From NCBI RefSeq assembly GCF_037042905.1, contig NC_087250.1:28336001-28400000 (forward strand): a stretch of DNA of 64,000 nucleotides. The letters run 5' to 3'. Positions 1,225 to 49,331 of this stretch are shown here, in pieces. A program made the position numbers and the translations under genes. Below the pieces are notes generated by a model, which saw nothing but the letters and a program-made list of their open reading frames with translations, did no database searches and was not told the DNA's origin. The stretch comes from Lytechinus pictus. Taxonomy: Eukaryota. Within the stretch, counting starts at the first letter, position 1. Each line of letters begins with the position of its first letter.

Positions 1225-4200
1225 GATACAAAAGAACAATGATATATAATCGCGGAATTGCTAGAATAATATCAAGGATTAACGTCTTAGATATACTACA
1301 GTAATTATGTAACCATTGCCATCATGATAATATATTGCCGCATACTAGATTACATTGCCGCTATTATAAACTTGTTTTCATACCTGTGTATTCATGTCAC
1401 CTGAGACGGCAGGGCACTCTGAAGGCCTTTTTCATAATATAGTTGCAATCACTCACTACTCTAAAATCAAACACATCTTTATTTTCAGCCAATGAAAAGC
1501 GCGTATTACGGACTTGTGAGTAATTTTATGAGTTGCGTTCAAACGCAACTCTTTGAGCAACCTGATCCTGTTATCCTATTCCATTTTGCTATAATTATGA
1601 GCTTCCAACGTGTGGCTGATTTCTTTGGCAACCCTCAAGCAATGGATATGTTCTAGCGGGCTGGAACCCCATGAAACACGAGCAGGTATTGTGTTCTTGC
1701 TTTGGGAGATATCGCAGGGAAAAGAAAACTGGCGCGAAGATAGAGCGGGATATCTCAGCCCGGGGAGATCTAAATTCATAATTATAACAACTCGATCGAT
1801 AGAAAGCAGAATTTCGATCTTCTTTCCCGAGCCATGCAGGTGTATTATGGGACGAACGAGGATTGGATTGCCAAGGAATTTACTAAAATCATTACAGGTC
1901 AAAATAAACAATCAAAAGGGGTGTACATACATTTAAAATTGGAGAGGGTGGGGGAGGTAAGTGGAAGTTTTTATATTTTGATTCATTCTTTTTTGTTTAG
2001 TGGTCTAATGTATACTACATAAAGTTGAATGTCCCTTGGCTAATCCTTACCTCGATCGAACAAGTAAGAAAGAAGAAAATGATTGAATCAATAACTAGAT
2101 GAAATAACAATGATTGATTCATCACCTTTGAAACGAATTAATTATGTTAATAAACCTACAAATTTAACAAAGAAGATAATAGGACAACCCCCCTCGAAAC
2201 AAGTAAGAGAGAAAGCTTTCAAAGAACAGAAAAGGGGAAATATATAAAAAGGATGAAGAAAGATCAATACACGAGAGAGAAAGTTCAAGACCCACAAAAC
2301 CATAATGCTAAATGCTAATTTAAACAGAAAACATACAGACAAGCAAACAAACATTGGACAAGAAGCGCGACAATCTGATGCTAACCGGGAGGGGGGGGGG
2401 CACATGTTTATCTTTTTTTCAAGTCAACATTAAGACATTTATCACTGAAAATTCACGTTTTGAGCGCCCCTCGCCTTTGAAATAAGGCAGTGGAAGTACT
2501 TTCTCGGGCAAGATGATTTCTTGATATCACATTCTTTTGGGAATTAAATCTGCTCTATTTTGGAGCGGAAAGCAATTTTCTTGCTTGTCTGACAGATTGT
2601 GAATAAATCAACAATTTTATTATGACATTTTAACATATTTTCCTCGATCATCCCCATGTAACAGTAAGAGTTGAAACCATTACAATAATCATACTCGTCT
2701 ACTTGGGCACTCTTAATCTAATATCATGAATAATCGTCGGATAACACTCCATATTTACCTCAAATCCTATATCCGATTCTGTATGTCCTGACCTTTAAGT
2801 AACAGGGCCGGTTGGAGAAACTCTAACAAAAAATCATACGCAACCTTTATGTCATCCAATCAAATGCGTGCAATCGGGACTTACGCATGATTCATGTTGA
2901 GTTGCATTAAATCGAAAGGCTTCCTATAACCGGGGCCCCGACGATTGTTACTCCATCACTGACAAGTTGATAGCTATTTTGCGCATTTTTGACCGCGAAA
3001 TTATACGAGAGAGTGAGCGTAATTCGGGATGATACAACCGGCCCCGTCCCCCGGGGCTCGGTAATTTAGTCTCCGCAGATCGCAGTGCTAAGAAAGACAT
3101 AAAGGCCTCGTGTTGATCTTTGATAGAGTCAGAAGGAGATGTATTCTATGTCAAAACAGGAATATCTGATGATGCATCAAGCAATGAATGCTCTTTATGT
3201 CACCTCCAGGTTCAATTACATTATAGAGTCGATGCTTGCTAGCAAGGTTTGAAATGGATGCAGGAAAATGACTGTATTCCTCATTGTATCAGATTTAAAT
3301 GAAAGCTACTGCGGAATGTACGTTAGGAGGTGAAAAGAGAAATTTACCTGGACACGACTAATGTAACTATAGCCTACCCGTCGAGAACAAACAGAAAAAA
3401 GTCACGATCGTTCTATGAAGGTCCTAAAATACACCCACAATTATTATTTGCTTATCGCGTGGAATATCAAACCGTATATAGTCTTACTTTCATCATTCGA
3501 TACTGCTAATCGGTATCAATAAACTTCACTTTCTACTAATTTCGTTTTGTCTTTGTACTCCTCTTTACAAACGGTATCGATACCTTGGTATCGGTATTTT
3601 TTTTTCAATAGGTAATTGAGTGATAATAACATTAACTCAACGAATTTGGAGCAAAAACAACAAAAATTATGCTAGCATCAGTTATGGCACAATGAGCGAT
3701 TAGTTTAAATATACCCTTTCATTATTGATTATATACATGATAAATACTTGATTGAAAGGGCGAGAGAGGGACAGCTTTCTCTTGAAAAAAAAATCACCAC
3801 CCTAGAGAATAACCGATCATCATTTGGGAAGTTAGATGAGGGCCTTTTTTTGTGGGGGGGGGGGGCTCCTGCGATTTCTTGAAGATTATTGATTTTCCTC
3901 TAATTTCATAATTGCTTTAATACAAAGGTGTTACGTTCACTCAAAAAAATTTTAATTATCGTTTAAAATGTTGGAGAAGTCACAATCTTTTCCGAACGGT
4001 ATATCCAACCTGAATAAAGTTGAATCCAGCATTTTAAAGCGTTGGGTCGAAACATTTATAGTGCTAAATGCAACATTTAGAAAAGATTGGCCCTCTCACA
4101 AGCTTCCAAATGTTATTTATCATTTCATTGTTTTGAGTGTTGATGTTTTACTGATTCCATCTGATTCCAGACTAAATAGGTGATTTAATTCACACCACTA

Positions 4201-16980: not shown

Positions 16981-17133
16981 AGATATGCTTTTGTGTGTTA
17001 GTGATCATCAGAATTATCGATTTTAAGCTAAGATTGCATGATTTTACAAAGATAAGTCTACATTAAGATGATCTTTGAAGGTTTGCATGGTGGAGAGAAT
17101 ATTGAAAGGTTTTACGGTAAACACCATGTATGT

Positions 17134-17193
17134 AGTCCTGAAAAGGACTGTTTGTTACTCTTTCTTGAATATATGTTAGCTCTGAAAAGAACT
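17134..17193 (-). promoter_or_regulatory. Inverted copy of the histone-like stem-loop/HDE/stem-loop cassette
   Basis: agtcctgaaaaggact 17134-49, tctttcttg 17159-67, agctctgaaaagaact 17178-93. Confidence 0.75.
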
Positions 17194-17212
17194 GTTATCT
17201 ATAACAGATAAC

Positions 17213-17272
17213 AGTTCTTTTCAGAGCTAACATATATTCAAGAAAGAATAAAAAACAGTCCTTTTCAGGACT
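17213..17272 (+). promoter_or_regulatory. Histone-mRNA-like stem-loop + CAAGAAAGA downstream element + second stem-loop
   Basis: AGTTCT-TTTC-AGAGCT (17213-28), AACA + 6 nt, CAAGAAAGA (17239-47), AAAC, AGTCCT-TTTC-AGGACT (17257-72), ACA. Confidence 0.75.
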
Positions 17273-18086
17273 ACATACATGGTGTTTACCGTAAAACCTT
17301 TCAAAAGTCTACATTAATGTACCAGATATAAATGCATGGTAATATTTTGAAAATTAACTGTGATAAAAAAAAAATTCTCATGAAATAATTGTTTGCTGCA
17401 ACTACTGTCTTTTACCTTAACGGAGTGACTTCGTCTGCACCAAATTCATTTAAAAAATTCTACGTATTTCGGACAGAAATACATTTAAATTCTTCGCTCA
17501 TTTCGATCGTGAGTAAATTTTAACTAAACGTCCATCACATCCACAACATAGTGCTCTAAAATTACAAAGTTGATCATGTTAGATGAGGGGCGGGACTCTG
17601 ATTTTTTTTTCATATGGATTATGACTCTTTAAATGCAATTAACAATAGTAATAAGATCCTAATTTCCACATCAGTGCCTAATAGGATGGAAAAAAAAGGG
17701 GGGGGGGGGGGAAGATGAAGAAGAAAAGAAAAAAATGAAGAAGAAGAGGGGGACGAGGAGGAGGAGGAAGAAGAATTTGTATTTAAAACTGATCTCAGTG
17801 TCTTAATGGAGTATTTAAAAAAGTGGTGGTGTAAATTATCACTGTGTTGTGTTTGATCCGTGATTTATATTTTCTTTTCTTGGGGGACACATCCGCCCCT
17901 TGACCCCCCCCCCCTTGAGGGTCATAGTCAATATTTTCAATTTAAATATGCATTTCACTTAAAAATGTGCCCCCCACCCTTGTGAGAGTAACAGCAAGCA
18001 TTTATGATAGGAATATGGCGAACATACACATATGATGACCCCCCCTTTTTTTGGCTAGGCAAATCTTTCTAAGGACGATATCCCAT

Positions 18087-48880: not shown

Positions 48881-49284
48881 AGATAAATACCAGTTGTAAC
48901 GATCTCAAAATGAGTTCGAACAGAATCCAATGAAATTACCACCAAAGTGTTTGTATGTTTAAATAAAAGAGTATGAGTCACATGATAGCTCTGGAAGAAA
49001 ATGCGTAATTGCTGAGAAATTAGCAAAAAAGGCACGGAATTTTTTCAAAATAATGTCTGGTACATGTAGTTTTTGAAGCAATATGAATACATTGTCCCAC
49101 ACATGCTCTCCTTTGTTAGCGATCATAAAAATTATCGATCTTTAGCTAAGATTTCATGATTTTAACAAAGATAAGTCTCCATTAATGTGCAAGATCTAGA
49201 TGTAAGATAGTATCATATCAATTAACCTGATTTAGAATACTTTCTCATGAAATAGTTGTTTGCTGCAATTACTGTATTTTACCT
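48881..49284. mobile_element. Kolobok-like MITE (empty copy of 12915-17416)
   Basis: TTAA/TTAT flanks. Colinear with the split element. Confidence 0.75.
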
Positions 49285-49331
49285 TTATGCTAGTCAATTA
49301 TCACTGAGCCTGACATAAATTCCACGTGTAC

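Follow-up and report, generated by a model that had tools for sequence, protein, structure and literature searches.

Why should a short insertion in the genome of Lytechinus pictus carry what looks like the 3′-processing signal of a histone mRNA? In sea urchins that signal is said, from the classical work of Birnstiel and colleagues, to consist of a stem-loop, the sequence ACCA, a spacer and CAAGAAAGA, bound by SLBP and U7 snRNP. The stem-loop/U7 pathway is held to serve replication-dependent histone mRNAs almost exclusively, and a mobile family that kept a selected copy of both halves of the signal would be a natural experiment on the substrate range of the pathway.

The insertion, 238 bp in length, occupies positions 17067-17304 of the window (the whole 64-kb stretch of DNA that was analysed) and is bracketed by an exact 13-bp target duplication, AAGTCTACATTAA, recovered by a direct-repeat search. 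Once the insertion and one copy of the repeat are removed, the flanks align to positions 49103-49285 of the window (80.4% over 184 bp), where the target is empty and present once; the original reading of a 238-bp insertion with a 13-bp duplication, absent from the paralogue at 49173, was thereby borne out. An inverted-repeat search returned two arms, 17096-17200 and 17206-17310, 96% complementary and 5 nt apart. Chance matches, few in number, carry these 105-nt arms into the flank; what derives from the element is 99 nt in the right arm and 134 nt in the left. In each arm the letters agree with the inverted arrangement and the motif order read there earlier, which on the plus strand is AAC-AGTTCT-TTTC-AGAGCT-AACA-TATATT-CAAGAAAGA and then AAC-AGTCCT-TTTC-AGGACT-ACA. 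In the following list R1 denotes a covariance model built from only five early-histone 3′ signals of the L. pictus genome (stem-loop, spacer and CAnGAAAGAAT), all five of which follow a histone ORF, and pLTR denotes the pseudo-LTR of a Penelope-like element (PLE).

17054-17066, no strand: left copy of the target-site duplication, AAGTCTACATTAA, an exact direct repeat
17067-17101, minus strand: tail of 35 nt with which the ORF region starts, confined to the left arm, with CCACC-ATG and the ATG at 17088-17086
17102-17200, minus strand: left arm, pLTR sequence between the predicted hammerhead cut and the proximal site of RT initiation
17134-17149, minus strand: stem-loop 2 of the left arm (AGTCCT-TTTC-AGGACT), RF00032 24.4 bits, below the gathering score of 34
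17157-17167, minus strand: HDE-like motif of the left arm, CAAGAAAGAGT, with one change relative to the CAAGAAAGAAT of the family (R1)
17178-17193, minus strand: histone-type stem-loop 1 of the left arm (AGTTCT-TTTC-AGAGCT), R1 46.5 bits over 17155-17198
17201-17205, no strand: junction ATAAC, 5 nt, between the head-to-head arms, repeating the first bases of the arm
17206-17304, plus strand: right arm, the identical pLTR segment without the tail
17213-17228, plus strand: histone-type stem-loop 1 of the right arm, with 5′ flank AUAAC, stem AGUUCU/AGAGCU, loop UUUC and 3′ flank AACA, six of six pairs formed; R1 51.9 bits, E 1.7e-10, over 17208-17251
17239-17249, plus strand: HDE-like CAAGAAAGAAT of the right arm, 10 nt past the stem, identical to the HDE of two host early histone genes and at the same distance there
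17257-17272, plus strand: stem-loop 2 of the right arm (AGUCCU-UUUC-AGGACU), with no downstream element after it; R1 15.4 bits alone
17305-17317, no strand: right copy of the target-site duplication, AAGTCTACATTAA, an exact direct repeat
49173-49185, no strand: paralogous empty target site, a single AAGTCTCCATTAA, from the flank alignment

On the minus strand the tail runs CCACC-ATG-CAAACCTTCAAAGATCATC up to the target duplication. A 21-mer around hairpin 2 occurs only in the two arms within the 64-kb window, with 0 expected (100 shuffles). MicroRNA-type Rfam matches on the insertion (e.g. MIR4208, 72.8 bits against a gathering score of 140) were discarded; they are sub-threshold and reflect the long perfect hairpin formed by the two arms.

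The identity of the insertion is given by its longer relatives. Homologues map to RT-encoding elements instead of the flanks of histone genes, and the original assignment to the pseudo-LTR of a PLE holds: the long copy L031 of this family, called A here, has an ORF with a YVDD RT and a GVYRI..YIGET nuclease and bears a 1,080-nt inverted, 5′-truncated upstream copy. The Pfam domain RVT_1 is matched at 36.2 bits by the family A fragment and at 45.3 and 45.8 bits by two further families, B and C (cut-off 29.6). Family A also matches GIY-YIG at 27.7 bits (cut-off 22.6); for families B and C Pfam reports no such domain at E up to 0.01, and both align to the family A RT-EN protein, including the GIY-YIG segment, at 58-60% amino acid identity. 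An inverted second arm accompanies 13 of the 25 distinct family A places, and family B forms a tandem array with matches spaced 2,826 bp and frames of up to 858 amino acids open around them. The target duplications of PLEs are of variable length. No full-length family A copy was found: only two copies reach L031:2694, and both begin there, while the candidates L038 and L039 proved to be, respectively, rearranged and a decayed relative (71.5% identity). The N-terminal part of the family A ORF was not found among these copies, and its ATG is taken as the ORF start from family B, in which the ORF continues past the same ATG. Hence we have here a canonical PLE, inserted head to head, that is dead and non-autonomous. 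With the EN+ PLEs already described (Penelope/Poseidon, Neptune and the like; Frangieh et al. 2024, PMC11167929; Craig et al. 2021, PMC8557442) these elements share the RT with a C-terminal GIY-YIG, tandem and inverted partial copies, a target duplication, a pLTR hammerhead, a tail of 30-40 nt at one end, and a pair of internal sites, around the start of the ORF, at which RT begins; they differ in that the pLTR here adds a histone-type stem-loop and downstream element.

The ends of the copies explain the shape of the insertion. Family A copies end at two places, about Q101-105 or Q129-134. Among the family B matches listed, ends fall at query 173-176 (9/41) or at 203-213 (32/41), around the ATG, in a genome search with the pLTR in which the best 40 of 1,531 candidates were scored, so that the distribution of 5′ ends is not unbiased. 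These two end classes agree with the internal RT initiation reported for a PLE, in which there are two internal start sites and both strands are extended (PMC11167929). In each arm of the insertion the copied pLTR sequence begins no more than 1 nt from the predicted hammerhead cut and runs to one or other of two sites on either side of the ORF start, and it is because the arms end at different RT start sites that only one of them has the 35-nt tail. Both strands are extended in the anole PLE; by analogy, priming at a 13-bp staggered cut, from each of its two strands, probably gave rise to the two arms.

The cut site mentioned above belongs to a ribozyme that lies just outside the sequence kept in the insertion. 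An intact minimal hammerhead, CTGATGA-C-GACCAG..CTGGTC-GAAAC-GTC, is present in 13 of 16 aligned family A copies, immediately 5′ of hairpin 1 and directly before GATAACAG; in the remaining three it is mutated (L015) or the copy is truncated (L004 and L006). The window copy is devoid of it because both arms stop at most 1 nt from its predicted cut site. Families B and C carry the hammerhead together with the histone-like module. The assignment was made by eye from published PLE features and not by Rfam score: family A has the conserved core, leaves a nucleotide unpaired after position 9, and has a G10.1-C11.1 pair, a helix II of 6 bp and ACGU without loop 3; B and C show the same minimal type, with a long helix II, and between A and B helix II shows a compensatory change from C-G to A-U. 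Rfam hammerhead models gave no match in L031, L033, L062, L046 or L074, even at E up to 1-5, since they miss PLE minimal hammerheads, in which helix III is absent (Cervera and De la Pena 2014, PMC4209133). According to that paper, the published ribozymes share with ours the CUGANGA core, the G10.1-C11.1 pair, a long helix II, a very short helix I and a palindromic 15.2-16.2 stretch without loop 3, implying action as a dimer; the histone-type stem-loop that follows within 6-10 nt in families A and B is a difference from what is described there. Three distant PLE families, D to F (37% amino acid identity), have hammerheads without the module, and in two of the three these show the PLE minimal features, with U3-A8 variants. 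We infer that the module acts beside the hammerhead, and not instead of it as had been proposed. The position of both window arms, ending at the predicted cut, hints at hammerhead cleavage in vivo; a study of the anole PLE saw no such cleavage in RNA-seq (PMC11167929).

The resemblance of the module to the histone signals of its own genome is close. With R1, the element of the window scored 51.9 bits, family B 37.1 and family C 31.1 and 28.3, compared with 65-67 for the host signals and 15.4 for the best background (113 kb); within the window this insertion was the only match at E below 0.4. Even decayed copies, either B-like (L074, L077) or C-like (L075, L076), still match at 23-28 bits. Family A coincides with the host H4 signal at 35 of 44 positions; among the shared features are AUAAC as 5′ flank, the loop UUUC, a distance of 10 nt and CAAGAAAGAAU. 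The motif CAAGAAAGAAT, present in all three families, is identical to the HDE of two of the five host genes. Thus the claim of a histone-type stem-loop followed by CAAGAAAGA at sea-urchin spacing is sustained for the window element in both sequence and spacing. The stem-loop and the motif are conserved in A, B and C. The distance that separates them varies: families A and B have 10 nt, the main type of C has 5 nt and certain C-like copies have 11 nt, the host having 10-11 nt. With the generic model RF00032 the PLE hairpins scored 17.7-24.4 bits, below the gathering score of 34, and the host stem-loops 37.9-39.2.

When five host and five PLE stem-loops are compared, 60 of 60 pair cells form and three of the six pairs have changed on both sides. 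These compensatory changes, together with the retention of the module in three PLE families, agree with the earlier suggestion that the hairpins are selected for their structure. Two pairs (the second, G-C, and the top one, U-A) and loop positions U1, U3 and C4 are invariant. Of these, all but C4 are determinants of SLBP binding, and the two pairs are shared by family A and the sea urchin histone signal. In other respects the elements depart from that signal: (i) the 3′ flank is AACA, ACA or ACUU, not ACCA; (ii) the first pair of the stem in families A and C is A-U and not G-C; (iii) the second stem-loop of family A, whose stem is that of the single stem-loop of family C, has no downstream element, and family C has the 5-nt spacer; and (iv) the module lies in a retroelement pLTR, between ribozyme and start codon, and not behind a histone ORF.

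The exact composite motif occurs 1,363 times in the genome, against 0 for the reversed control. Among the first 100 listed, 96 are PLE-type and 80 C-type, and the composite is present at 29 of 30 loci retrieved with the RT-EN protein; it was not found in families D to F. The alignment of A, B and C keeps only the hammerhead core, the stem-loop, CAAGAAAGA, a ACATGGTGT..ACCGT block that can pair with CACCATG at the start codon, and the ATG region. Chance resemblance is ruled out by the R1 scores and the motif count, and the module very probably derives from the host histone signal, or has come to resemble it by convergence, and is under selection.

What the module does is a question of a different order. 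The sequences suggest that a Penelope-like group borrows the histone RNA machinery. In the function that we favour, the copy of the module in the downstream pLTR would act as a histone-type 3′-end signal. With SLBP on the stem-loop and U7 snRNP paired to CAAGAAAGAAU, the RNA would be cut a few nucleotides past the stem, and the resulting element mRNA, not polyadenylated, would suit S phase, eggs and cleavage embryos. We would give this function slightly less than an even chance, and an even one to the explanation as a whole. Neither AATAAA nor ATTAAA lies between the stop codon and the tail in any of the three families (0/3). The proposal carries obligations of its own. Since the module is read through, as far as the RT start sites, in every inserted copy, the transcripts that escape cleavage must be the RT templates; and since all inserted copies include sequence past the predicted cleavage site, the signal cannot define the template's 3′ end. 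Against a 3′-end signal stands the spacer of the commonest type, C, of 5 nt versus 10-11 nt in histone genes; U7 acts as a molecular ruler, and a spacing of 5 nt should impair cleavage. Also against it, the upstream pLTR carries the signal too, about 50-70 nt from where transcription likely begins; cleavage at that point would abort the transcript, so that differential use of the two pLTRs must be assumed. The RF00032 scores of the PLE hairpins, below the gathering score, and the A-U first stem pair of families A and C weigh against it as well.

RNA reads were consulted by aligning three ribo-depleted RNA runs and one cDNA run to the family B unit L062:1200-3771. In these runs there is no place on the unit where many molecules begin or end, which also counts against the proposal. 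The ORF is almost uncovered, and 288-450 reads per run fall on the pLTR, on both strands; 88-96% of these run on into unrelated sequence, and therefore come from dispersed fragments inside host transcripts. Some copy ends, seen as read joints and loose ends, sit at the predicted cut site (L062 position 2597), and joints at the initiator outnumber those at the cut site.

The same module might instead serve the 5′ end of the element RNA. Left uncapped by hammerhead self-cleavage, this RNA would start 6-10 nt before the stem-loop, and SLBP would protect it, replace the cap, or tie its translation to S phase or early development. The geometry in two families fits, the stem-loop being 6 nt (A) or 10 nt (B) past the predicted cut and upstream of the ATG; the arms of the window and the family B copies that end at position 2597 mean that RNAs with this 5′ end existed; and if no cleavage is needed the 5-nt spacing of family C is no obstacle. 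In family C, however, the stem-loop is 106 nt from the cut site, and the read joints of family B favour the initiator. The conserved 11-nt match to the host downstream element in three families would be left unexplained, and pairing of U7 with it would cut the stem-loop off the ORF. Overall we consider a 5′-end role unlikely. Similarly improbable is a role as a cis-element of the element's own RNP, in RT binding, RNA folding or the choice of RT start site, with the likeness to histone signals reflecting origin only. The module is among the conserved blocks near the RT start sites, such as ACATGGTGT..ACCGT with its capacity to pair with CACCATG, and the distance between stem and CAAGAAAGA varies between families (5, 10 or 11 nt). 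But the motif stays identical to the host CAAGAAAGAAT and the invariant positions of the stem-loop are those of the host histone stem-loops, and an RT-binding site has no reason to track a host signal. Besides, families D to F do without the module, and in the anole PLE the RNA needed in vitro lies downstream from the start codon, with the upstream pLTR sequence dispensable (PMC11167929).

A lower probability still attaches to the motif being a handle for host control, U7 pairing with it to repress the element, or a drifting relic of a captured histone flank. There is precedent for the former in human HERV1/LTR12, where HDE-like motifs mediate repression by U7 snRNA and knockdown of U7 derepresses the element (Plewka et al., bioRxiv 10.1101/2023.08.25.554787, available part), and the RNA reads give no RNA-end evidence of cleavage. 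In the available part of that report, LTR12 is likewise a retroelement terminal repeat with sequence complementary to the 5′ end of U7 snRNA, but its motifs stand alone, with no stem-loop at histone processing distance, and the effect is transcriptional repression by the host and not RNA 3′-end formation. With only short blocks otherwise kept in the pLTRs of the three families, a relic, or a motif harmful to the element, would not have persisted there, and the compensatory changes in the stem speak against drift. Finally, the original idea of a PLE lineage without a hammerhead, in which U7/SLBP cleavage cuts the tandem transcripts, would agree with the lack of the ribozyme in the window copy and with the silence of Rfam in every copy tested, but it is contradicted by the hammerheads of the longer copies and of families B and C, and with that silence accounted for by the missing helix III it can be set aside as extremely improbable.

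Returning to the 3′-end signal, we tentatively propose, as a reading that may well prove wrong, that a PLE clade took over the SLBP and U7 snRNP machinery to form non-polyadenylated mRNAs for S phase or the early embryo, which would make it the first selfish, non-histone client of this machinery. No prior description of a histone-type 3′ signal in Penelope-like elements was found in the open-access PMC and bioRxiv literature, where the LTR12 preprint was the one related paper; in the available part of PMC8557442 the words ‘histone’, ‘stem-loop’ and ‘hairpin’ each occur 0 times. The processing of PLE RNA is little understood, with hammerheads that cleave poorly in vitro, and the module could help to explain the 3′ ends of PLE mRNAs. 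If the proposal is right, expression of the transposon would be tied to S phase, oogenesis and cleavage stages, where new insertions are heritable; cutting by hammerhead and U7 together would free a stem-loop RNA some 27 nt long, as long as a minimal SLBP ligand; and the 1,363 dispersed signals may give host genes premature histone-type ends, or else titrate SLBP and U7.

A minor observation concerns the 5′ ends of truncated arms, which in several cases start at Q32-39 in family A and at L062 2642-2652 for the second arms of family B. A footprint of U7 was considered for these clusters and rejected, as their positions relative to CAAGAAAGA differ between the two families. At L062 2642, part of the cluster results from the alignment breaking at a 1-nt deletion; moreover, the RT could be stalled by a stem of CATGGTG with CACCATG.

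The insertion and its paralogous empty site are located as follows (window coordinates):

17054-17066 and 17305-17317: 13-bp target duplication AAGTCTACATTAA, an exact direct repeat bracketing the insertion
17067-17304: insertion of 238 bp
49173-49185: empty paralogous site with a single AAGTCTCCATTAA

When the insertion and one repeat copy are removed, the flanks align unbroken to window 49103-49285 (80.4% over 184 bp). The insertion is built of two inverted arms, 96% complementary and separated by 5 nt. The arm reads AAC-AGTTCT-TTTC-AGAGCT-AACA-TATATT-CAAGAAAGA and, after CAAGAAAGA, AAC-AGTCCT-TTTC-AGGACT-ACA; the minus-strand arm alone carries a 35-nt extension, the tail, through CCACC-ATG up to the target duplication. 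The original prediction proved accurate in its description of insertion, duplication, empty site and arm sequence. The host of the insertion is a short repeated sequence of ~184 bp (window 16985-17420 and 49103-49285), whose copies at 17 kb and 49 kb are 80% identical. The same structure occurs at C34:401659-401902 (loci L001, L029), with the long arm 100% identical and one more base different in the short arm; this is probably an alternative-haplotype scaffold or duplicate assembly of the same locus, not a second insertion.

The 811-Mb assembly, in which the window lies at C6:28336001-28400000, was searched with the reverse complement of 17067-17200 (query Q), giving 54 matches from 232 candidates, 40 of which were scored. 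A second, inverted arm was present at 13 of the 25 distinct places fetched, and the ends of the Q copies fell into two classes, at ~Q101-105 or Q129-134. Upstream of Q, one long copy (L031, on C8) codes for a reverse transcriptase (RT) with the YVDD motif and for a nuclease of the GIY-YIG type (GVYRI...YIGET), and Pfam RVT_1 and GIY-YIG both exceed their cut-offs. L031 has in addition a 1,080-nt inverted, 5′-truncated partner copy. Canonical Penelope-like elements (PLEs) show partial tandem or inverted copies and a 30-40-nt tail at one end (PMC8557442). By anatomy, the source of the window insertion is a canonical PLE, an assignment suggested as possible from the sequence beforehand and borne out by the two enzymes, the inverted truncated partner and the one-sided tail. 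Assembly searches found no full-length copy of this family (family A), so the window ATG is read as the ORF start from comparison with the related family B, whose ORF runs on from the same conserved ATG. Family B also forms an array at C10:11884419-11903818 (L057-L063), with two opposed tandem blocks, matches 2,826 bp apart, open frames of as much as 858 aa around these matches, and listed pseudo-LTR (pLTR) copies mutually 100% identical.

Host histone signals were found in a 7.3-kb tandem repeat (L070) with five histone genes, H2B-like, H4, H1, H2A and H3, each followed by AAC-GGCYCT-T(T/A)TC-AGRGCC-ACCA (ACAC in one), 6-7 nt and CA(A/C/T)GAAAGAAT. A covariance model, R1, was trained on these five signals only.

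Scores of PLE and host sequences with model R1
Host signals: 65-67 bits
Family A hairpin 1 with CAAGAAAGAAT: 51.9 bits (E 1.7e-10)
The window's other arm: 46.5 bits
Family B: 37.1 bits
Family C: 31.1 and 28.3 bits
Best remaining match over both strands of 113 kb, family A hairpin 2 alone: 15.4 bits (E 0.4)

Outside the PLE module, the best R1 match in the 113 kb (both strands) reached 15.2 bits. By our own count, 35 of the 44 positions in the host H4 signal are identical in family A; among them are the AUAAC 5′ flank, the loop, the distance of 10 nt and CAAGAAAGAAU over its full 11 nt. This identity and the R1 score of hairpin 1 uphold the predicted histone-type stem-loop and downstream element at host spacing. 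With the general Rfam histone stem-loop model the PLE hairpins score 17.7-24.4 bits, below the threshold of 34, and the host stem-loops 37.9-39.2. Across five host and five PLE stem-loops all 60 of 60 pair cells form, and three of the six stem pairs vary on both sides. Invariant in all ten are the G-C pair at the second position, the U-A pair at the top of the stem and, in the loop, U1, U3 and C4; these are the SLBP determinants.

Searching the assembly with the RT-EN protein yielded 147 matches out of 714 candidates. Of the 30 loci fetched, 29 combine a perfect 6-bp stem with a TNTN loop and CAnGAAAGA, and they fall into three families (A, B and C) with 58-60% amino-acid identity in RT-EN; conservation among copies, a point raised by the original prediction, extends to the stem-loop and CAAGAAAGA in all three. 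Their pLTRs have in common only the hammerhead core, the stem-loop, CAAGAAAGA, a ACATGGTGT..ACCGT block and the CCATG-SAAACCTTCA start region. R1 still recognises decayed B-like (L074, L077) and C-like (L075, L076) copies, with scores of 23-28 bits. Hammerheads also occur in three distant PLE families (37% identity), in two of them with the published U3-A8 core variant; stem-loop and downstream element are absent from all three.

The proposal that the module acts instead of a hammerhead was wrong. The motif CTGATGA-C-GACCAG-AACACG-CTGGTC-GAAAC-GTC stands intact directly before GATAACAG in 13 of 16 aligned longer family A copies; the remaining three comprise one mutated copy and two that break off within the motif. 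Rfam hammerhead models reported no hammerhead in the copies tested. The motif has every feature of PLE minimal hammerheads given by Cervera and De la Pena (PMC4209133): a conserved core, an unpaired nucleotide after position 9, the G10.1-C11.1 pair, a helix II that is long and a helix I that is very short, and a palindromic ACGU with no loop 3, implying action as a dimer. Helix II of family B, GACAAG/CTTGTC, carries a compensatory change relative to family A. In the distant PLEs L072 and L073, TTGACAA or TTGATAA replaces CTGANGA, matching the U3-A8 core covariation described by the same authors, and L073 has GAAAG-CTC, with the palindrome kept as AGCT. Since the predicted cut between GTC and GATAACAG lies no more than 1 nt from the start of either window arm, the template of the insertion was probably a hammerhead-cleaved RNA. 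Such a start is not general, as all 16 other aligned copies keep hammerhead sequence. Upstream of the hammerhead, 5-7 nt from its CUGA box, families A and B have a TATA-like box and a TCATTC initiator:

L062 (family B unit) 2530-2560: TATA-like box and initiator region
L033 (family A) about 3470-3496: TATA-like box and initiator region

RNA-read joints place many family B copy ends at the initiator (L062 2556-2561), whereas the cut site of the hammerhead (2597) has fewer, so most templates were probably uncleaved.

According to Frangieh et al. (PMC11167929), the protein of an anole PLE cuts and extends both DNA strands. Its reverse transcription begins at two internal, neighbouring sites close to the ORF start, and the stretch between the two is the tail. 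The window insertion fits this model. By analogy, the tailed arm would have started at the distal site, hence a tail on that arm only, and the other arm at the proximal site, while staggered cuts would have given the 13-bp duplication. A CATGGTG block conserved in families A, B and C is able to base-pair with the start-codon sequence (C)ACCATG:

L062 2646-2652 with 2681-2688: pairing partners, family B
17122-17128 with 17086-17092, minus strand: pairing partners, window

The pairing is present in the minimum-energy fold of family A, with the proximal RT start site inside its loop, and may be the counterpart of the stem-loop reported at the anole RT start site. In head-to-head insertions the short second arm tends to end immediately 3′ of CAAGAAAGA in family B (L062 2642-2652) and at the 5′ edge of CAAGAAAGA in family A (Q32-39). 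These stops could come from RT stalling at RNA structure or bound host factors, or from an alignment break at a common 1-nt deletion.

PLE, hammerhead, tail and inverted arms are of known kinds. No description of a histone-type stem-loop with downstream element in a retroelement was found in the literature (open-access PMC and bioRxiv). The interest of the module is high because the stem-loop/U7 pathway is otherwise regarded as almost private to histone mRNAs, and the retroelement would be a putative client of it. The module is present, significant and conserved; we infer that it is under selection and that it either derives from the host histone signal or came to resemble it by convergence. 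A histone-type 3′-end role would be its most economical use, since it accounts for both module halves as well as for the host-like spacing. When read as part of the downstream pLTR, the module would direct SLBP- and U7-dependent cleavage a few nt after the stem, giving a non-polyadenylated element mRNA; neither AATAAA nor ATTAAA occurs between stop codon and tail in any of the three families. All inserted copies extend across the module as far as the RT start sites, so the RT template would have to be RNA that escaped this cleavage. Three features are difficult for the 3′-end role: (i) the same signal lies ~50-70 nt from the probable transcription start in the upstream pLTR; (ii) the most abundant family has only 5 nt from stem to CAAGAAAGA, and (iii) in families A and C the stem opens with an A-U pair. 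Reads from three ribo-depleted runs and a cDNA run were mapped to one family B unit (L062). Its ORF was almost unread in the four runs, its pLTR had 288-450 reads per run on both strands, and 88-96% of these ran on into unrelated sequence; no pile-up of RNA ends was found on this unit. The data weigh only weakly against the 3′-end role, because the reads come from dispersed fragments in unidentified tissues. Alternatively, SLBP might act at the 5′ end, on hammerhead-cleaved, uncapped RNA, or the module might be a cis-element for the element's own RT. It might also be a handle for U7-mediated repression, as reported for human LTR12.

Genome-wide, there are 1,363 occurrences of the composite pattern of stem-loop, spacer and downstream element and 0 of the reversed control; among the first 100 listed, type C accounts for 80, types A and B for 8 each and the histone type for 4. 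Exact motifs of stem-loop and CAAGAAAGAAT, numbering more than 1,300, are dispersed on chromosomes, most of them PLE-derived, and the four histone-type motifs among the first 100 lie outside large tandem arrays. If any dispersed motifs are functional, premature ends of host transcripts are possible. In run X24, from a second labelled organism (B), reads are 95-99% identical to the family B pLTR (L062). As these reads carry an intact stem-loop and CAAGAAAG, the module is common to at least two labelled organisms; two spacer changes (2627-2628) are nearly fixed in them.
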